Below, one piece after another: positions 16,132 through 26,475 of a DNA stretch of 34,201 nucleotides. Location of the stretch: NCBI GenBank assembly GCA_048624115.1, contig JBMCTC010000002.1, positions 1 through 34,201 on the forward strand. The letters are read 5' to 3'. Under the pieces are notes generated by a model. That model saw only the letters and a list, made by a program, of their open reading frames with translations, was not told the origin of the DNA and made no database searches. Position numbers and translations under genes: made by a program. Every line of letters begins with the position of its first letter. Position 1 is the first letter of the stretch. The DNA is from Spirochaetota bacterium (GTDB taxonomy: Bacteria > Spirochaetota > Spirochaetia > DSM-27196 > SLST01).

Positions 16132-16755
16132 CTACAAGTCTATGTCTGAGAGGGTGAAGCGCAGCTCAGTTGCCGTCTCCAGGTCCACTCCTTTGCGGAC
16201 ATACCGATCTCCGTCAACGTCCACAAGGACCACGTCTACGATGAGCGACGAGAGTTCGTCGGCAGCAACGCGCAATCGGTAACGTTCGGCGACTCGAAGC
16301 CGTGCATCCTCGAGAAGACTTTCGGCGGCGTCCGTTGAACGACCTCGCGGAACGACGTAAATCTCGGCGATCTCGTAGTTCGTGTCGTTGACGATGTCGA
16401 GCCAGCCAACAGAGGCGAGCGCGGCTGCACCCGTTCCAGCGGAATCTGGGCGCAGCGTCAGTCGTTGGTCTGCAGTCGGCCGCCAGCCCCACACAACAAT
16501 CTCTTGCTCATTCTCATCAATCGCTCGCAGATCATAGGCGGCAGCACCGCGCAGCGTCAGGGTGATGCTTCCGCCCGGCGCGAGCACCGAATCACCGAGC
16601 CGGTCAAGTCCCCAGGACGTCGCATCCTCGGGAGATACGTAGAGAAACACAAGTGTCACGCCGGTCTGATTGACGACCTCGAACGTCACTTGTTGAGCCG
16701 ACAGCGCGACACCGAGCGCCACGAGCACACCGCAAACAGCACAAAGCTTCTTCAT
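16132..16755 (-). CDS. Secreted protein with two tandem copies of an uncharacterised beta-rich domain
   Basis: Internal ATG at 16755 gives MKKLCAVCGVLVALGVALSAQQ, a clear signal peptide. The 149-codon upstream extension in the ORF track overlaps a plausible plus-strand gene and has no protein-like features. The mature part shows two similar halves: VTFEVVNQTGVTLVFLYVSP... and WLDIVNDTNYEIAEIYVVP... Confidence 0.6.
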   Translation of the reverse strand: MKKLCAVCGVLVALGVALSAQQVTFEVVNQTGVTLVFLYVSPEDATSWGLDRLGDSVLAPGGSITLTLRGAAAYDLRAIDENEQEIVVWGWRPTADQRLTLRPDSAGTGAAALASVGWLDIVNDTNYEIAEIYVVPRGRSTDAAESLLEDARLRVAERYRLRVAADELSSLIVDVVLVDVDGDRYVRKGVDLETATELRFTLSDIDL

Positions 16756-16812
16756 AACTGCCCTTGACCCCCGGCTCGAATATACCACCGCGACGGCGGT
16801 TGCTCCACAACC

Positions 16813-17067
16813 GTGAACACGGTAGCATGCAGTGTGGGAAAACGAGACGGAGACGAGATCATTCTCAACAACGAAATAGAAGCAAGGCTGCTCTCCTCTC
16901 TCCTCGAGGAAGAGGAGATACCGCACTTCCTTCGCAGCTATCACGATTCGGCATACGACGGAATCTTTCAGTCCCAACTCGGATGGGGCAGAATAGAGGC
17001 GGATCCGCGCCATCGAGACCGGATTAAGGAGATATTGAACGACCTTCGGGCGGAGCAGAACGGTTGA
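16813..17067 (+). CDS. Small acidic protein, DUF2007-like (putative signal-transducing fold)
   Basis: 77-84 aa, with GTG starts at 16813 or 16834. EIILNNEIEARLLSSLLEEEEIPHFLRSYHDSAYDGIF...GWGRIEADPRHRDRIKEILNDL resembles the small DUF2007 family. It sits 106 nt upstream of cysD on the same strand. Confidence 0.5.
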   Translation: MNTVACSVGKRDGDEIILNNEIEARLLSSLLEEEEIPHFLRSYHDSAYDGIFQSQLGWGRIEADPRHRDRIKEILNDLRAEQNG

Positions 17068-17173
17068 AAAGGGTCGATATCGCCCATTTAGGTGAATTTT
17101 TGATGAAATTCGGTCGGTGACCGACTGAAAACGCTGACGAAACTGTAAAGCTTGTGTATCGTTCCTCATATTC

Positions 17174-18052
17174 ATGGACCACCTAACGCTGCTCGAAAAC
17201 AAGAGCGTCTACGTCCTTCGCGAGGCGTATGCGAATTTTCGTGACCTCGCGATGCTCTGGTCAATCGGCAAGGACTCTACCGTCTTGCTCTGGTTGGCCC
17301 GCAAAGCGTTTTTTGGTCACGTGCCCTTCCCTCTCATTCACATCGACACCGGGTACAAGATCCCGGAAATGATCCGTTACCGCGACCGGCTCACCAGCGA
17401 GTGGGGCTTGACCATGATTGTCGGTCAGGACGAGGATTCGCTTCGAACCAAGCAAACGTATCCGGAGGGCAAGAAGACTCGCCTGGAGTGCTGTAAGGCA
17501 CTGAAGAGTCAGACCCTTGAGCGAACCCTCAACGCGACGGGCCCGAGAAAGATCTTTGACCAAGCCAAGAACGGCTACGTGCCGGAGACCAGCGGACAGG
17601 TGTTTTCCGGAGTTATTGCAGGCGTCCGGGCCGACGAAGAGGGTTCTCGGAGCAAGGAGCGTTACTTCTCGCCTCGGACCGGGACAAACGATTGGGAAAT
17701 CGCCGATCAACCGCCGGAGTTCTGGAACCACTATAAGACGGAGTTCGCCCCCGGCACCCATGTTCGGATTCACCCGCTGCTCGACTGGACCGAGCTCAAC
17801 ATCTGGGAGTACATCAACGCCGAGTCAATACCAACCGTCGACCTCTACTACGACCGGGGCAACGGCACCCGCTATCGATCACTTGGCTGCCAGCCCTGCA
17901 CCTTTCCCATAGAGAGCACGGCGAAGAACCCGGCGGACATTATTGCCGAGCTCAAATCGGGCAATCTCAAGAACATCGCCGAACGCAGCGGCCGCGCCCA
18001 GGACGCGGAAGACGGCGGTCTCGAGACCTTGCGCAAATCAGGATACATGTAA
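17174..18052 (+). CDS. cysD: Sulfate adenylyltransferase subunit 2
   Basis: 292 aa. PP-loop motif [17 protein letters not shown], then [11 protein letters not shown], and the conserved C-terminal LRKSGYM. The stop overlaps the cysN ATG (TAATG). Confidence 0.95.
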
Positions 18053-19935
18053 TGAACCCGAGCACCACGACGAAAGGCGGGAACACATCAGCCTATCCTC
18101 GGTTGGCGGCCGACAGAGAGCCCAGTGGCCCCATGAGCGAAGATCGGCCCACCCTGCAACTTGTCGTTGTTGGTCACGTCGATCACGGAAAAAGTACAAT
18201 TGTTGGGCGTATGCTCCACGATACCGGCTCGCTTCCAGAGGGAAAACTCGATGCGGTGCGCGCGCAGTGCGAGCGAAACTCGAAGCCGTTCGAGTACGCC
18301 TTCCTGATTGACGCCCTCAAGGAGGAGCAGTCGCAAGGCATTACGATAGACTCGGCACGCGTCTTCTTCTCTTCCCACCGCCGCGACTACATTCTCATCG
18401 ATGCGCCGGGCCACGTCGAGTTCCTGAAGAACATGGTCACCGGTGCGAGCCGAGCAGATGCCGGATTCCTCGTAATCGACGCCGCCGAGGGCATTCAGGA
18501 GAACAGCCGTCGACACGGATACCTGTTGGCAATGCTTGGCATCAAGCACTTTTCAGTGATTGTCAACAAGATGGACCTGATTGACTATGACCAGCGGATC
18601 TTCCGGCGCATTGTCAGGCGTTACCGCCGCTTTCTGAGGAGCATCTCGGTCCCAGCGGAGAACACGACCTTTATTCCGGTCAGCGGCATCGCCGGTGACA
18701 ATATCGCCGCCCGTAGCCCGCGGACGCCTTGGTACGAGGGAAAAACCGTGCTCGAGCAGCTCGACAGCTTTCCCGGAACGATCCCGAGCGATCAGCTGCC
18801 GGCCCGAATGCCGGTTCAGGGTGTTTACAAGTTTACCGCCTACGGGGACACGCGACGAATCATTGCAGGAAGCATTGCCGGCGGCACATTCTCGGTCGGC
18901 GAGGAGGTGGTCTTCTACCCCTCGGGTAAGCGCAGCCGCATACGAAGCTTCGAAGCGTTCTCAGCCGTGGCGCCGGAGACGATCACCGCACCACATGCCA
19001 CCGGGTTTTGCCTCGAAGATCAGATCTACGTCACGCGTGGCGAACTTGCAACACGCGGTAGCGACCCGCCGCCGACCGTGAGTAGCCGTCTCAAGGCGAA
19101 CATCTTTTGGCTTGGTCGCGAGGAGATGACCGAGGGCGTCGAGTACACCTTCAAGCTCGGAACGATGGCGCACAGCGTTCGCCTTCACCGTGTGATTCGT
19201 GTCTTGAGCGCCTCAAATCTCAAACCGAGCAAACGCAAACGGAGCGTGGAGCGTCACGACGTCGCGGAGGTGGAGCTTCGATTCGACGGCGATATCGCCT
19301 TTGACGAGGCGAATGTGCTACCGGCAACCGGACGCTTTGTCATTGTCAGCAACTACGACATCTGCGGTGGAGGCATTATCCAGGGGTCGGCAACCGACGA
19401 GGATGAGTGGATTCGCGAGAACGTGCGCCTTCGCAACTTTGCATGGCAGCGCAGTCTCATCCAGCCGCCGGAGCGTGCCGAGCGATACGGCCAGAAGAGT
19501 AGATTGATCGTGCTCCACGGTGACAATCCGGCTGAGACGACCTCGCTTGCCCATCAGCTCGAGCAACGGCTCTTCAACGAGGGCAAGCTCGTCTACTGCC
19601 TTGGCGCAGAGAACGTCGAACACGGCGTAAGTGCGGACCTGCAAGAGGTGCCGATGATACGCGAGGAGCACGTTCGACGCTTAGCCGAGGTCGCGCACCT
19701 CTTTTTGGACGCAGGAATCATGCTCATTGTATCGGGCATCAAGCTCACCGCCGCGGACATCGACGTGCTACGCGTGCCGGTAAACCCGGAGTCTATGCTC
19801 ATTGTCCAAGTCGGAGAACGACAAGCAAAGGGAATCGTGAATCACCTCGTGCTCGAAGGGGATTCCCGTGAATCATCGATCGAGAAGATAAAACGGGCTC
19901 TGAGGAAAACCGGAGCGATCTTCAGCCCGTATTGA
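18052..19935 (+). CDS. cysN: Sulfate adenylyltransferase subunit 1 (GTPase) fused to a degenerate APS-kinase-like C-terminal domain
   Basis: 627 aa. GTPase motifs GHVDHGKST, DAPGH and NKMD are followed by EF-Tu-like beta-barrel domains. Residues ~455-627 align by eye to CysC, but the P-loop GLSGSGKS is replaced by GDNPAETT and LDGDNVRHGL by LGAENVEHGV. Confidence 0.9.
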   Translation: MNPSTTTKGGNTSAYPRLAADREPSGPMSEDRPTLQLVVVGHVDHGKSTIVGRMLHDTGSLPEGKLDAVRAQCERNSKPFEYAFLIDALKEEQSQGITIDSARVFFSSHRRDYILIDAPGHVEFLKNMVTGASRADAGFLVIDAAEGIQENSRRHGYLLAMLGIKHFSVIVNKMDLIDYDQRIFRRIVRRYRRFLRSISVPAENTTFIPVSGIAGDNIAARSPRTPWYEGKTVLEQLDSFPGTIPSDQLPARMPVQGVYKFTAYGDTRRIIAGSIAGGTFSVGEEVVFYPSGKRSRIRSFEAFSAVAPETITAPHATGFCLEDQIYVTRGELATRGSDPPPTVSSRLKANIFWLGREEMTEGVEYTFKLGTMAHSVRLHRVIRVLSASNLKPSKRKRSVERHDVAEVELRFDGDIAFDEANVLPATGRFVIVSNYDICGGGIIQGSATDEDEWIRENVRLRNFAWQRSLIQPPERAERYGQKSRLIVLHGDNPAETTSLAHQLEQRLFNEGKLVYCLGAENVEHGVSADLQEVPMIREEHVRRLAEVAHLFLDAGIMLIVSGIKLTAADIDVLRVPVNPESMLIVQVGERQAKGIVNHLVLEGDSRESSIEKIKRALRKTGAIFSPY

Positions 19936-19962
19936 CTGAAGGGTCCATAGTGAGGGGGTGCC

Positions 19963-21237
19963 ATGCACTACAGTCTGAAGTGTCTGAGCACGGGAGCGGT
20001 GTTGACCGACGAGCTGCTCCCGTTGAGTAATCCTGCGGCGCAGGTTCCCGCGTTTCTGCGGGCAACATACAATAAGAGAGAGTTCAAACCGGGCACTGCC
20101 GACGCCGGCATTTACCGCTTTGCCGATTGGCTCCCGATTCGTCGAACGCTCGAAGGCTCGAGCGCTCCGACAACATACCGGAGCGAGGGGCTCGCCGAGC
20201 GAGTCGGACTCAAGAACCTCTTTATTACGTTTTCCGGCTACTGGCCCGAGCGGAATGCACTGATGCGAACAGGGACGTTCAAGGAGTGCGAGGCGTTTAG
20301 TGTCTGCGGACGAATGCCGGCGAATTACGACAAGACGCTTGTCGTCGCCTCGGCTGGGAACACGGCACGCGCGTTTATCCGGGTGTGCTCGGAGAACAAC
20401 ATACCGCTCCTCGTAGTTGTGCCCGAGCGTAATCTGCCCAACATCTGGAGCGTGGGCCCGGTCGGAGCAAACGTGAGGGTGGTTGCCGCCGGAGGCGATT
20501 CGGACTACTCCGACGCGATTGAGCTCTCGGGCATTTTTGCGTCGCTTCCCGGTTTTGCCGCGGAGGGCGGCGCGAAGAACGTCGCACGTCGGGACGGTAT
20601 GGGCACGACGGTTCTCTCTGCGGTTGAAGAGATCGGCGAGATTCCTCACCACTACTTTCAGGCGGTAGGCAGCGGTACCGGTGCCATTGCTGCATGGGAA
20701 GCCAATCTGAGGCTACTCGAAGCCGGCGACTACGGTGACCGTACGATGAGACTCCACGTGAGCCAAAATCTGCCCTTTACGCCGATTCATCTTGCCTGGA
20801 AGAAGCAATCGCGCGAGATTCCAAGCATGCCCGAGGCAAGCGCCCGTCGATTGATTCGACGCATAAGTGCGAAGGTTTTGGCAAACCGGAACCCGCCGTA
20901 CGCTCTGACCGGTGGGCTCTACGATGCATTGTACGAGACGCATGGTACCACCGCTGCCGTGGGGAACGTTGCAGCCGCCCGCGCCGCGCGAATCTTTCGG
21001 AGACTCGAGGGTGCGGACATCGCACCCGCGGCGGCAGTGGCGGTTGCAGATCTTATGCGTAGGGCCAGAACTGGATTAATAAAGGAAGATGAAATCGTGA
21101 TGCTCAACGTGACCGGCGGCGGCTACAAGGGCATACACAGGAGTGAGGATATTCGCCTCGTCGTTCCGGATGCAGTGGTTCATCGAGAAAACTTCCATCC
21201 GGAGGACGTGGCAAAAATCGCCCGTGAACTCTTTTGA
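19963..21237 (+). CDS. Threonine-synthase-fold PLP enzyme, cysteate synthase-like (candidate O-phosphoserine + sulfite -> L-cysteate)
   Basis: 424 aa. PLP-Lys region MRTGTFKECEAFSV (FKE rather than the FKD of threonine synthases). FSGYWPERNALM lies just upstream, with ASAGNTARAF and a GSGTGAIAAW glycine loop. N-terminus MHYSLKCLSTG..LTD. It is embedded between cysN and an alpha-oxoamine synthase. Confidence 0.65.
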   Translation: MHYSLKCLSTGAVLTDELLPLSNPAAQVPAFLRATYNKREFKPGTADAGIYRFADWLPIRRTLEGSSAPTTYRSEGLAERVGLKNLFITFSGYWPERNALMRTGTFKECEAFSVCGRMPANYDKTLVVASAGNTARAFIRVCSENNIPLLVVVPERNLPNIWSVGPVGANVRVVAAGGDSDYSDAIELSGIFASLPGFAAEGGAKNVARRDGMGTTVLSAVEEIGEIPHHYFQAVGSGTGAIAAWEANLRLLEAGDYGDRTMRLHVSQNLPFTPIHLAWKKQSREIPSMPEASARRLIRRISAKVLANRNPPYALTGGLYDALYETHGTTAAVGNVAAARAARIFRRLEGADIAPAAAVAVADLMRRARTGLIKEDEIVMLNVTGGGYKGIHRSEDIRLVVPDAVVHRENFHPEDVAKIARELF

Positions 21238-21256
21238 TATCAGCAAGGAGCAGTAT

Positions 21257-22549
21257 ATGGATCAGACAGCAGTTGTAACTGAGTCACGCGATCTCTTCGA
21301 GAAGTGCCGCAGCGACGGCGGCTACTTTGGTCTCATGAGAGCCCAAGACGATCACTACTTCACCCGACCGATTCTCCCACCAAAACCGGGCCGTCGAATG
21401 GAGTTCGACGGAATGCAGACGGTAATGTGGAGCGTGAATAACTACCTCGGGCTTGCAGGACACCCCGAGGTGCAGAAATCGGCACTCGAGGCGGTGCAAG
21501 AGTTTGGGGTAAGCTCGCCGATGGGTTCGAGGATGATGACGGGAAACACGCCCTATCACCTCGAGTTCGAAGACGCGCTTGCCTCGTTCACCCAGAAAGA
21601 GGCCGCGTTTCTCTTTAACTACGGCTACCTCGGCGTGTTGGGCACGATCCAGTCTCTCGTGGGGCCGGACGATGTCATCGTGATGGACAAGCTCGCCCAC
21701 GCATGTATCGTGGACGGGGCGTTCCTCTCTCGCGGTCAGCTTCGCGTATTCAAGCACAACAACGCCGATAGCCTCGAAACCGTCCTGAAAGCGGTCAACC
21801 GCAAGCGCAAGGGTGGCGTATTGATCCTTACCGAGGGCGTCTACGGCATGACCGGCGACCTCGCCATCCTCCCCGATGTGGCACGACTGGCACGCCAGTA
21901 CGATGCGCGCGTCTTTGTGGATGACGCGCACGGTTGGGGCGTAATGGGCGAACAGGGCCGCGGTACCGCCGACCACCTCGGAGTCCAGGACGATATCGAC
22001 GTCTACTTTGGCACCTTCGCCAAGTCGTTCGCCTCGATCGGCGGCTTCTCGGCATCGAAGCGAGAGGTAATCGATTGGATCGCCTATAACGCCCGGACAC
22101 AGGTCTTTGCAAAGAGTCTTCCAATGGTGTACGTCCAGAGCTTGCGCACGACGCTCGACCTCGTTCGGAACGCAGACGCCAACCGCGAGAAAATGTGGGC
22201 AAACAGCAACCTGCTCAAGGAGGGGCTTCGAGAGCTCGGCTTCTTTGTCGGTCCGGGCGAATCACCAATCTGTTCGGTCTTTGTGCCCGTCCGCGAAGAG
22301 ACCGTGGAAGCGGTTGGCGTTCGCACCGTCGGCTACCTGCGCAAGAACGGTATCTTCGTGACGGCAATCACCTACCCTGTCATTCCGTTGGGCCTGCTGA
22401 TGTATCGAATGATTCCAACCGCCGACCACGAGCCGGAGGACGTCGCACAGACGATCGAGGTCTTCAGAAAAATGCGAGACGAGGTGAACCTCGACACGTC
22501 GATCACGGGAGAGGACAAGGTCAAAGTCGATAAGGTTTTTGGGGCATAG
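21257..22549 (+). CDS. Alpha-oxoamine synthase family PLP enzyme (candidate cysteate-C-acyltransferase; BioF/SPT-like)
   Basis: 430 aa from the ATG at 21257, which has AAGGAG 8 nt upstream. The ORF-track start at 21143 overlaps the preceding gene. AOS motifs: VNNYLGLAGHPEV, GYLGVLGTIQSLV, DDAHGWG, and the PLP-Lys block GTFAKSFASIGG. Confidence 0.85.
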   Translation: MDQTAVVTESRDLFEKCRSDGGYFGLMRAQDDHYFTRPILPPKPGRRMEFDGMQTVMWSVNNYLGLAGHPEVQKSALEAVQEFGVSSPMGSRMMTGNTPYHLEFEDALASFTQKEAAFLFNYGYLGVLGTIQSLVGPDDVIVMDKLAHACIVDGAFLSRGQLRVFKHNNADSLETVLKAVNRKRKGGVLILTEGVYGMTGDLAILPDVARLARQYDARVFVDDAHGWGVMGEQGRGTADHLGVQDDIDVYFGTFAKSFASIGGFSASKREVIDWIAYNARTQVFAKSLPMVYVQSLRTTLDLVRNADANREKMWANSNLLKEGLRELGFFVGPGESPICSVFVPVREETVEAVGVRTVGYLRKNGIFVTAITYPVIPLGLLMYRMIPTADHEPEDVAQTIEVFRKMRDEVNLDTSITGEDKVKVDKVFGA

Positions 22550-23315
22550 CGTGCAGCGAGAGCCGCGCAAACGAAGCGACCTCGCCCGCCTCGATCAAGC
22601 GAGCGAGGGACTCGATACCGGCGATCTCCTCGCGTTCCTCTGCGATCGAATCGCGCCGGGAACCGTGAAGCTCGCCTCGAGCCTCGGCGCCGAGGATCAG
22701 GTTCTCACCCACATAATTGCGGAGCGAGCCTTGCCGATTACGGTGCTTACCCTCGACACGGGGAGGCTCTTTCCAGAGAGCTACGATCTCATGGCACGAA
22801 CGCGTGCGATGGGTGTTTCATTCGAGGTTGTCTTTCCCGACGGCCCTGCCGTCGAGGAGATGGTGCGCGCGCACGGCGTGAATCTCTTCCGGGACAGCGT
22901 CGAGTTACGCAAGCGTTGCTGTGGTATCCGAAAGGTGGATCCACTCAACAGAGCGCTCGCCGGGTGTAGTGCATGGGTCACCGGAATGAGACGCGAGCAA
23001 GCGGTTACGCGAGGTGAGATTTCGCGACTCGAATGGGATGCCGACCGGGAAATGCTCAAGGTGAATCCGCTCGCCGACTGGTCGGAGGATGAGGTATGGC
23101 AGTACGTGCGGGAGCACGACGTGCCCTATCATCCTCTTCACGACGAGGGATTTCCCTCAATTGGCTGCGCGCCGTGCACCCGAGCAGTCAAGCCGGGCGA
23201 GGATCCGCGTGCGGGTCGTTGGTGGTGGGAATCACCGGAGCACAAGGAGTGCGGTCTCCACGTGCGTGCAGCGACTGCGCAATCGTACGTGAACGTGAAA
23301 CACCTCGACTCGTAG
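22539..23315 (+). CDS. cysH: Assimilatory adenylyl-sulfate (APS) reductase, Fe-S cluster type (CysH family)
   Basis: CysH fold with C-terminal KECGLH. It also has the two Cys pairs typical of APS-specific enzymes (RKRCCGIRKV and SIGCAPCT). The start is TTG 22539 (11-nt overlap) or GTG 22551 (1 nt after the upstream stop). Confidence 0.9.
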   Translation: MGHSVQREPRKRSDLARLDQASEGLDTGDLLAFLCDRIAPGTVKLASSLGAEDQVLTHIIAERALPITVLTLDTGRLFPESYDLMARTRAMGVSFEVVFPDGPAVEEMVRAHGVNLFRDSVELRKRCCGIRKVDPLNRALAGCSAWVTGMRREQAVTRGEISRLEWDADREMLKVNPLADWSEDEVWQYVREHDVPYHPLHDEGFPSIGCAPCTRAVKPGEDPRAGRWWWESPEHKECGLHVRAATAQSYVNVKHLDS

Positions 23316-24395: not shown

Positions 24396-25295
24396 TTAGT
24401 ATACTGAAGCGTCGCCGTTACGTTCGGCCTCGGCGGCGTCGATTTCTCTACTCGCGAGACGGCGGTTCATCATGGGGATCGAGATACCCAGGAACATCGC
24501 CGTCATCGCCACAGGTCCGACGAGGGTCCAGAGTTCCACGCCGGCCGCGTACGAGAGCGCCCAAACGCCCCACCAAAAGAGCATCTCGCCAATGTAGTTT
24601 GGATGGCGAACAACGCCCCAGATTCCAGTTCGCAAGATCTTGCCCCCGGTTGAGGGGTCACTTCGAAACGCGGCGAGCTGATTGTCGGCCACCCATTCGA
24701 GACCAATCGCAGCTGTGAGCAGCAGCCCGCCTGCGACGAGCGTAAGCATCGAAAACGGGTCGGCCATTGATGCGGTTCTCTGAAGTGCAAAGGCAACCGG
24801 CACGAGCCCAACGAAGACGATAAGCGTCGGGAAAAAGTGAACTCCGATAAAGTCGATCACGATTTCCGCGCGGCCAAACTGCCCTTTGAGCATGCCGTAT
24901 CGCCAATCCTCGTCGCCGAATCCGTGCCAACGCCGTACCCAGTTCGCCGTCAGACGCACGCTCCACACGACGAAGGCGAGAAGCAGCAACGAGAGCCAGA
25001 GCACGGCACCCGTCGAGCTTCCCTCGAACGCCGCGCCGATTCCGCCTCGGTAGGCTGCAATCCAAAAGAGCACGATCACAGGCGGCGCGAGACTCCAGTA
25101 CGGATCGTACATGCTCGAGTTGCCGGACAGCCGACTCGCAACAAATACAAAGAGCGTGGCCGCCGCGTCTGCCCAGAGCGCGCGCTCGACGGGTGAGCGG
25201 TCACGCAGCCAGAGAACGACTGCCGCGCCGACAACGAATGCGGCCACGTAGGTAAAGAACACCGCGACGAGCGCTCGCCTCTTCTCACGCACCAT
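24396..25295 (-). CDS. DUF1295 / steroid-5-alpha-reductase-like polytopic membrane protein
   Basis: About 299 aa with 6-8 TM segments. The C-terminal signature [24 protein letters not shown] is shared by DUF1295, ICMT-like and sterol/polyprenol reductase families. ATG at 25295 overlaps the kbl 3' end by 11 nt; the track start at 25313 overlaps by 29 nt. Confidence 0.75.
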
Positions 25296-26475
25296 GGCCG
25301 AGCTCCTTCGCAACCGCAGTAAGCTGTTCGAGCGTATAGTCGAGCTCTTCGCGCGTGTGCGCAGCGCTCACCTGCATTCGTATACGCGCGCTACCCTTCG
25401 GGACCACGGGATACGAGAAGCCGATCACATACACGCCGCGCGCGAGCAGGAGGTCGGCCATCTCGTGGGCCAGCTTTGCCTCACCAAGCATAATCGGCAC
25501 GATCGGATGGGAGCCCCCGGGAATCGACAGGCCGATCTTTGCGACTTCGTTGCGGAAGTAGCGAGTGTTCTCTTCGAGCCGATCGCGAAGCTCGCTGCTT
25601 GATTCGAGAAGGTCGAGCACGGCTATCGACGCGGCCACAATGCTCGGCGCGACGCTGTTGCTAAAAAGGTAGGGGCGCGACCGCTGTCGCAGCAGATCCA
25701 CGACCTCTGCGTTCGCGGCGGTGTAGCCGCCGGTGGCTCCGCCGAGCGCCTTACCAAGGGTCCCGGTAATGATGTCGACGCGGTCGACCACATCGTGATA
25801 CTCGTGGGTCCCCCTACCCTTTGCCCCGAGAAAGCCCACCGCGTGGCAGTCGTCAAACATGACAAGTGCCCCGTGTTTCTCGGCGAGATCACAGATACCG
25901 GGAAGGTTTGCAATGGTTCCGTCCATCGAGAAAACCCCATCCGTCGCGATGAGCTTCACATCGGCTTCGGAAGCCTCTTCGAGCCGCTGCTCCAAATCGG
26001 CCATATCGCAGTTCTTGAAGACGTAGCGCTTGGCCTTGCAGAGGCGCACACCGTCGATGATGCTCGCGTGGTTCAAGCTGTCGCTGATGATCGCGTCTTC
26101 AGGGCCCAACAGCGTCTCAAAGAGACCACCGTTTGCGTCGAAACAGGAGGCATAAAGAATCGCGTCTTCCGTTCCCAAGAACGAGGCGAGACGCCTCTCG
26201 AGCTCCTTATGGATCTCTTGGGTCCCACAGATAAATCGAACGGACGAGAGGCCAAAACCCCATTCGTCGAGGCTCTTGCGCGCCGCCTCGATGACGCTCG
26301 GATGGTTGGAGAGGCCGAGGTAGTTGTTCGCGCAGAAGTTGATGACGTTCTTCCCGTCTGCCACACCGATCGTCGAATCCTGCGGCGTCTCGATGATTCG
26401 CTCGGTCTTATAGAGCCCCGCCTCTCGTATCTCCTGTAAGATAGATGAGAAACGCGCGCGTGCGTGAGTGTCCAT
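25285..26475 (-). CDS. kbl: Glycine C-acetyltransferase (2-amino-3-ketobutyrate CoA ligase)
   Basis: 396 aa, collinear and highly similar by eye to E. coli Kbl along its whole length. Shared blocks: [96 protein letters not shown] and [10 protein letters not shown]. Confidence 0.95.

Follow-up and report, generated by a model that had tools for sequence, protein, structure and literature searches.

A cysteate-C-fatty acyltransferase-like enzyme encoded in a sulfate-to-cysteate operon of a spirochaete

The window analyzed here comprises 34,201 nucleotides (positions 1 to 34,201 of contig JBMCTC010000002.1, assembly GCA_048624115.1) of a member of Spirochaetota that is represented by a metagenome-assembled genome (MAG) of 3.18 Mb and 88% completeness. 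It contains five closely packed or overlapping genes on the plus strand (17174–23315) that encode CysD, CysN, a cysteate synthase, an α-oxoamine synthase (AOS), and CysH (Table 1). The AOS, protein P0001, is the subject of this study. Its open reading frame (ORF) runs stop-free from ATG to TAG over 430 codons, and Pfam recognizes a single full-length Aminotran_1_2 domain (PF00155, 145 bits). All three hallmark motifs claimed for the protein in a first-pass annotation of the region are present (SVNNYLGLAGH, VDDAHGWGVMG, and YFGTFAKSFAS); the last contains K256, the lysine that forms the Schiff base with pyridoxal 5′-phosphate (PLP), which aligns with K250 of CapB and K251 of SulA.

Table 1. Features of the operon, its surroundings, and related loci. 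Positions refer to the window unless a contig or locus is named. APS, adenosine 5′-phosphosulfate; FAAL, fatty acyl-AMP ligase; ACP, acyl carrier protein; CFAT, cysteate-C-fatty acyltransferase; VOC, vicinal oxygen chelate; SPT, serine palmitoyltransferase.
Feature	Position	Strand	Evidence or remark
cysD-like, sulfate adenylyltransferase small subunit	17174..18052	+	First operon gene; NF003587, 330 bits (cut-off 195); PF01507
cysN-like, GTPase subunit with degenerate APS-kinase-like domain	18052..19935	+	Matches to GTP_EFTU and GTP-eEF1A_C
C-terminal APS-kinase-like domain of CysN	19414..19935	+	
Cysteate synthase (O-phosphoserine + sulfite to cysteate)	19963..21237	+	TIGR03844, 458 bits (cut-off 325)
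Shine-Dalgarno-like AAGGAG	21245..21250	+	Read from the sequence; six bases ahead of the ATG of P0001
P0001, CFAT-like AOS (CapB/SulA/CFAT clade)	21257..22549	+	Scores, trees, and pocket residues
Codon of K256 in P0001	22022..22024	+	Schiff-base lysine in GTFAKS
Codon of K286 in P0001	22112..22114	+	Equivalent of CapB K280′
cysH, Fe-S thioredoxin-dependent APS reductase (APS to sulfite)	22539..23315	+	Last operon gene; TIGR02055, 254 bits (cut-off 235)
Two-module VOC (glyoxalase-fold) protein, 351 amino acids	23336..24391	-	PF00903, PF13669; convergent with the operon
Kbl (glycine C-acetyltransferase)	25285..26475	-	Comparator outside the pathway; TIGR01822, 651 bits (cut-off 493); Asn at the CFAT lysine position
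DUF1295 membrane protein	24396..25313	-	
Weakly conserved ORF upstream of cysD	16132..17202	-	No family match
Small divergent ORF	16813..17067	+	
Third AOS of the genome, SPT-like	C35:5846..7063 (L082:1477..2694)	-	Ala at the CFAT lysine position
P0126, FAAL-ACP-CFAT fusion	L139:10001..13384	+	1127 amino acids
VOC homolog next to P0126	L139:13438..14553	+	
Sulfite-oxidase-family molybdoenzyme	L139:19836..21002	-	

Together, the operon genes cover a predicted route from sulfate to cysteate and its acylation. The stop codon of cysD overlaps the start of cysN (ATGA), and the TTG start of cysH overlaps the end of the P0001 gene by 11 bases. The first-pass annotation had described the AOS gene as lying between a cysteate-synthase-like gene and an APS reductase gene, and both neighbors exceed the curated cut-offs of their families. 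The best match of the former among solved structures is an entry named 'Cysteate synthase' (9k3c, 439 bits), whereas threonine synthases reach at most 42 bits; the latter carries the motifs CC (RKRCCG), CxxC (GCAPCT), and KECGLH. The match of CysN to the APS_kinase profile is partial (46 bits, profile positions 3–88 of 152) and lacks a Walker A motif (GxxxxGK[ST]), with HGDNPAETTS at the expected site, suggesting that CysN probably does not convert APS to 3′-phospho-APS (PAPS); this relic of an APS kinase may have a structural or APS-channeling role. An Rfam scan at gathering thresholds detected only a tRNA, so there is no riboswitch ahead of cysD, and the counts in a promoter and terminator scan were near chance.

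The family membership of P0001 was assessed with the equivalog cut-offs of NCBIfam. The functions that the first-pass annotation had listed as alternatives all fall short: P0001 misses the cut-offs for BioF (TIGR00858, 309 vs. 426 bits), Kbl (NF005394, 297 vs. 460; TIGR01822, 247 vs. 493), and the CFB, Beta, and Alpha models of SPT (298 vs. 640, 290 vs. 500, and 230 vs. 670). When all solved structures were searched, the top matches, both near full length, were the only two CFATs in the PDB: 28EH (CapB from Capnocytophaga ochracea, 362.5 bits) and 7U7H (SulA from Alistipes finegoldii, 358.9 bits). The next matches are the best SPT (256.6 bits), about 100 bits lower, and Kbl (204 bits).

Phylogenetic analysis places P0001 accordingly. 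In a first tree (51 rows, IQ-TREE, LG+C20+F+G4, quick search), P0001 forms one clade with 14 spirochaete orthologs and 16 CFAT orthologs of Bacteroidota, including named Flavobacterium, Mesonia, Polaribacter, and others, which is subtended by a long stem and has a support of 99 in the Shimodaira-Hasegawa-like approximate likelihood ratio test (SH-aLRT). The SPT-like homologs form a separate clade (SH-aLRT 99), as do the Kbl homologs (SH-aLRT 100), which include both the Kbl of the window and that of Escherichia coli but not P0001. Because profile NF047600 yielded no match above cut-off in 41 Bacteroidota genomes, a score of 440–517 bits, together with the PDB match obtained for the genome's own paralog, served to define the SPT-like rows. 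Forcing the spirochaete clade together with the SPT-like clade lowers the log-likelihood by 48 units and is rejected by the approximately unbiased (AU) test (p = 0.00076). In a second tree, P0126, a fusion protein described below, groups with the spirochaete clade (SH-aLRT 96) within a larger clade (SH-aLRT 97) that also holds the CFATs of Bacteroidota. The AOS phylogeny that had been proposed as a check on the first-pass annotation thus places P0001 among the CFATs in both trees, with the orthologs from Bacteroidota as reference.

The residues lining the side-chain pocket, whose comparison had been proposed as well, point in the same direction. In SulA, K281, which is contributed by the partner protomer, is described as the only clear distinction from SPT in the active site: SPT has Ala at this position, and the K281A variant is inactive (Radka et al., PMC9304779); further contacting and discriminating residues are listed with the structure of CapB in complex with cysteate published in 2026 (PMC13692747). 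When the positions of CapB were mapped onto P0001 by HMMER and MAFFT alignments, P0001 agreed with the CFATs at the diagnostic lysine and four more discriminating positions (Y122, E193, F251, and A255; Table 2). Also the equivalent of C141 in CapB is a cysteine (C150), as in CFATs, and the universally conserved catalytic residues are retained (N61, H148, D222, H225, T253, K256, and R384). R384 aligns with an arginine in both CapB and SulA and is probably the equivalent of Arg376, which is named as conserved in SulA (Radka et al., PMC9304779).

Table 2. Residues at discriminating positions of the amino acid pocket. Primes denote residues from the partner protomer.
CapB	P0001	CFAT clade	SPT-like	Kbl	BioF
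K280′ (SulA K281)	K286	Lys (31/31 rows)	Ala (14/14)	Asn	Thr
F113	Y122	Phe/Tyr	Thr	Ser (Ala in 1 row)	Ser
E187	E193	Glu	Asp	Asp	Glu
F245	F251	Phe	Met, Thr, Val, or Ser	Thr	Val
A249	A255	Ala	Ser	Gly	Gly
A82′	S91	Ala (Ser in 2/16 Bacteroidota and all spirochaetes)	Ser	Val	Ser

The association of the AOS with cysteate synthase is conserved far beyond the immediate relatives. The synthase gene lies directly upstream of the AOS gene in all 27 spirochaete loci examined, which represent approximately ten families and AOS identities down to 52%. Within the order, 41 genomes were compared, and they have either both genes or neither, except for two that encode only the synthase and a third that is just 71% complete. 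By contrast, the other operon genes are confined to close relatives. Among the loci examined, CysD and CysN occur only in the window and in its near kin (L001–L003), and an Fe-S CysH above cut-off was found only in the same family (f1), always beside the AOS in this operon; even within the genus, one genome with 96% completeness lacks it. Synthase and AOS therefore form a conserved core, to which the module from sulfate to sulfite has been added in this lineage. Two members of family f8 in the same order (G029 and G036) have a cysteate synthase (TIGR03844, 316 and 479 bits) but neither a CFAT-like AOS (E ≤ 1e-60) nor a homolog of the VOC protein; in these genomes, cysteate may have another use.

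A search for siroheme sulfite reductases (NIR_SIR), which was positive in 11 of 14 control genomes, found none in the MAG itself, none in the 14 genomes of its family, and only two among the 41 genomes of the order. Within the limits set by the incompleteness of the genomes, this suggests cysteate synthase as the only visible consumer of the sulfite.

The closest relative of P0001 outside the spirochaetes is a fusion protein. Among 1.84 billion cluster representatives, only about six clusters at 50% identity exceed 350 bits, and three of them are fusions of approximately 1050–1130 amino acids (P0126, P0128, and P0129), in which a fatty acyl-AMP ligase and a carrier protein are joined to a CFAT-like AOS; all carry the CFAT lysine. 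P0126 is 54% identical to P0001 and the closest non-spirochaete relative, and its 90% cluster includes a protein from a Rhodothermaceae MAG. It shares with P0001 the lysine, the pocket residues, and a VOC protein as neighbor but differs in the ligase and carrier domains fused to its N terminus, whereas P0001 stands alone. The fusions probably act as self-loading synthases of sulfonolipids in bacteria other than Bacteroidota; no published description of such fusions was found in the literature. No cysteate synthase of the TIGR03844 type is encoded within 10 kb of the fusion in L139. A sulfite-oxidase-family molybdoenzyme is encoded approximately 6 kb away, with a transposase gene in between, which may be a coincidence.

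Among the characterized systems, CapB (CO-CFAT; 28EH/28FA, PMC13692747) is the best-scoring solved relative, aligned over residues 11–411. P0001 shares with it the catalytic and cysteate-contacting residues N52, G114, Y115, H139, C141, E187, D216, H219, F245, T247, A249, K250, F278′, and K280′ (CapB numbering), and the predicted reaction would be the same. The differences are Tyr instead of F113, Ser instead of A82′, Val instead of M277′, and a tail of about 20 residues beyond the aligned region; moreover, P0001 belongs to another phylum and a separate subclade, with identities of 44–46% to named orthologs from Flavobacteriaceae. SulA (7U7H, PMC9304779), whose K281 corresponds to K286 of P0001, stems from gut Bacteroidales rather than a spirochaete and prefers acyl-ACP (PMC9304779); no description of an operon that joins SulA to sulfate activation and APS reduction was found in the literature. 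Alistipes is reported to pair SulA with a homolog of the archaeal-type cysteate synthase, a type reported also for Odoribacter, whereas environmental Bacteroidota reportedly use a different cysteate synthase, CapA (PMC10191378). The combination of enzyme types in the spirochaetes therefore matches that of Alistipes and Odoribacter. No TIGR03844 gene was found within 7 kb of the CFAT gene in 76 Bacteroidota loci or anywhere in 45 sampled Bacteroidota genomes; the notion that Bacteroidota never use an archaeal-type cysteate synthase was nevertheless rejected in view of these two genera (PMC10191378). The SPT of Sphingobacterium multivorum (3A2B, 256.6 bits) resembles P0001 in its PLP chemistry and in the AOS scaffold of fold type I, but SPTs form a separate clade and carry Ala at the position of K286 and Thr, Asp, Met, and Ser at those of Y122, E193, F251, and A255.

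A further conserved component is the two-module VOC protein encoded convergently with the operon. Its gene adjoins the AOS gene in most loci from spirochaetes, even where the locus is rearranged, and in the set of 41 genomes it is present or absent as the AOS is, also within two genera whose members differ in this respect. In L139, a Rhodothermaceae-like contig, a homolog with 53% identity follows the FAAL-ACP-CFAT fusion on the same strand after 50–100 bases. The proximity of VOC and CFAT genes in two phyla and two arrangements argues for a functional link. A role as a general partner of CFATs was rejected, because the protein was not found in five CFAT-holding Bacteroidota genomes and is therefore not part of the classical pathway. 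A PDB search with the sequence gave no match, and an Atlas search returned unnamed VOC clusters. The AF2 model (pLDDT 91) is nearest to monomeric two-domain glyoxalase I, GLOD4, PcpA, and an uncharacterized Bacillus metalloprotein, but with TM scores of about 0.55, the similarity is generic. The invariant residues Q9/Q10, E71, H257, and E308 presumably resemble the Gln-Glu-His-Glu metal site of human glyoxalase I, and the basic C-terminal helix (residues 338–347) may mediate membrane association. A metal-assisted proton transfer beside the ketone of the aminoketone intermediate is chemically plausible but speculative. The VOC protein is a candidate accessory enzyme of the pathway.

The computed evidence, which comprises the placement within the family, the residues of the pocket, the order and co-inheritance of the genes, and the failure to detect a siroheme sulfite reductase, converges on one interpretation: P0001 is very likely a PLP-dependent CFAT that catalyzes the first committed step of sulfonolipid synthesis. 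The CapB/SulA-like chemistry with cysteate that the first-pass annotation had proposed is in agreement with the PDB scores, the CFAT clade, the AU test, and the pocket residues alike. In the predicted pathway, CysD and CysN would convert sulfate to APS, no PAPS would be formed by the dead kinase domain of CysN, and CysH would reduce APS to sulfite, from which cysteate synthase would form L-cysteate with O-phosphoserine. L-Cysteate would displace K256 from PLP to yield an external aldimine, whose Cα carbanion would attack the thioester of a long-chain acyl group with either ACP or CoA; decarboxylation would then release CO2 and give 3-ketocapnine (2-amino-3-oxo-alkane-1-sulfonate), the first lipid intermediate, and a free thiol. 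For this branch, the sister fusions, with their own ligase and carrier domain, favor a long acyl chain that is bound to a carrier. Substrate, product, and acyl donor are predicted on this basis, and the same applies to the subsequent reduction and N-acylation and to the presence of a sulfonolipid in the cell.

Several points weigh against this interpretation. The organism is known only from a MAG. The trees include Bacteroidota orthologs but not the characterized CapB and SulA, so that the link to the latter comes from the PDB scores, and the group forced in the AU test was named only after the tree had been inspected. S91, a second-shell residue corresponding to A82′ of CapB, is SPT-like; it is the sole position of this kind, and Ser occurs here also in two of the 16 CFATs from Bacteroidota. 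Exchanges of first-shell residues failed to convert CapB to the use of serine (PMC13692747), and because such residues alone do not set the specificity, the residue evidence is corroborative rather than decisive. Finally, neither a 3-ketocapnine reductase nor an N-acyltransferase was identified; the genome encodes 22 generic short-chain dehydrogenases/reductases (SDRs), none of them linked.

Other readings of P0001 have to be judged against this background. A function as BioF or as another Kbl is scarcely conceivable, because this would be supported only by generic AOS similarity and the name 'glycine C-acetyltransferase' that homologs of P0001 carry in JGI annotations, whereas the scores are far below the cut-offs, the protein falls outside the Kbl clade, and there are no biotin genes in the window. 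It is also very improbable that P0001 is an SPT that forms 3-ketosphinganine for sphingolipids: although SPTs are its next-nearest relatives and S91 is shared with them, all three SPT cut-offs are widely missed, the diagnostic position is occupied by Lys instead of Ala, the AU test rejects the grouping, a separate SPT-like gene is already present on contig C35, and the invariant upstream neighbor makes cysteate rather than serine. Equally improbable is the use of another anionic amino acid (such as homocysteate, cysteine sulfinate, or O-phosphoserine) or of a short acyl chain, which would yield a soluble aminoketone sulfonate. The long branch that separates the spirochaete clade from the CFATs of Bacteroidota (stem 1.48) leaves room for such a shift, since the specificity is deduced from sequence; however, a preference for cysteate and for long chains is common to all six CFATs characterized so far (PMC13692747), the gene upstream exceeds the curated cut-off for cysteate synthase, and the fatty acyl-AMP ligase and ACP of the sister fusion point to long acyl chains.

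Less remote, but still unlikely, is the possibility that cysteate is used but the end product is a modified sulfonolipid other than capnine, such as one with a head group like that of Salinibacter ruber, with the VOC protein acting on the α-amino-β-keto intermediate. The nearest non-spirochaete relative, the P0126 fusion, clusters with a protein from a Rhodothermaceae MAG; the VOC gene adjoins the CFAT gene in both phyla but was not found in the five Bacteroidota genomes that hold a CFAT; and the sulfonolipid of Salinibacter is unusual, having been likened to SPT inhibitors of the sulfamisterin type in a review (PMC2444003). Yet the chemistry of the product is not legible in the sequence, the catalytic residues are those of an ordinary decarboxylating AOS, the fold match of the VOC protein is generic, and the remark in the review on the Salinibacter structure is indirect. 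In a broader and somewhat more probable, though doubtful, version, the spirochaete CFATs and the sister fusions of Rhodothermaceae-like origin would constitute another, second branch in which sulfonolipids are made by bacteria other than Bacteroidota, with a metal-dependent two-module VOC protein as obligatory partner that acts on the α-amino-β-keto sulfonate (e.g., as an epimerase or isomerase, or in forming a Salinibacter-type head group) and a product class distinct from capnine and sulfobacins.

The assignment of P0001 as a CFAT extends known chemistry to a variant layout of the pathway; it does not amount to a system of a new kind. New are the phylum, the addition of sulfate activation and APS reduction to the operon, the VOC partner, and the coexistence with an SPT-like gene. 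In a survey of gut genomes, 99.99% of the prioritized genomes with a sulfonolipid pathway belonged to Bacteroidota (PMC11525784), and Salinibacter, now in Rhodothermota, is a known producer (PMC2596770); a full-text literature search found no paper on sulfonolipids in spirochaetes. The conservation of a CFAT-clade enzyme and cysteate synthase over approximately ten families of one spirochaete order would, if the lipids are indeed made, add a second or third phylum to the known range of sulfonolipids. A lipid head group, instead of cysteine, would then be what assimilatory sulfate reduction serves, and proteins now named 'glycine C-acetyltransferase' in databases would receive their correct annotation. 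The VOC protein, conserved next to the CFAT in two phyla, provides a concrete candidate for a missing or new step of the pathway.

The genome (G000) encodes three AOSs in total. The SPT-like homolog on contig C35 has the opposite score pattern of P0001, with 399 bits for the SPT of Sphingobacterium and 199 bits for CFAT, and falls within the SPT-like clade of the first tree, but does not reach the cut-off of NF047600 (497 vs. 640 bits). Each of the three paralogs therefore points to a different known function. Sphingolipids and sulfonolipids may therefore both be made by this organism; for Bacteroidota, a review regards the two as mutually exclusive. An SDR encoded near the SPT-like gene was considered as 3-ketocapnine reductase, but this is unsupported, as it is a generic FabG-like SDR.

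The second AOS of the window, which is encoded 2.7 kb from P0001 as stated in the first-pass annotation, is a bona fide Kbl with 65% identity to that of E. coli; P0001 is only 31% identical to this Kbl of the window. Two AOS genes are indeed present in close proximity, but the rarity ascribed to this arrangement adds little, because the neighbor is a plain Kbl that is kept in a syntenic block across the order. A partner dehydrogenase of the E. coli type (tdh) was not found in the 88%-complete genome (best TIGR00692 match, 170 bits; cut-off, 458).

Upstream of cysD, a weakly conserved ORF on the minus strand, with 32–42% identity to its counterparts in L001–L003, lies beside a small divergent ORF, with no Rfam element between them and cysD. 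The 3′ end of the Kbl gene overlaps the gene of a DUF1295 membrane protein by 29 bases; the latter gene is absent at this position in most other loci but occurs there also in G008 of the same genus (L088/L135), and a more distant copy is located approximately 3.6 kb away in L126.

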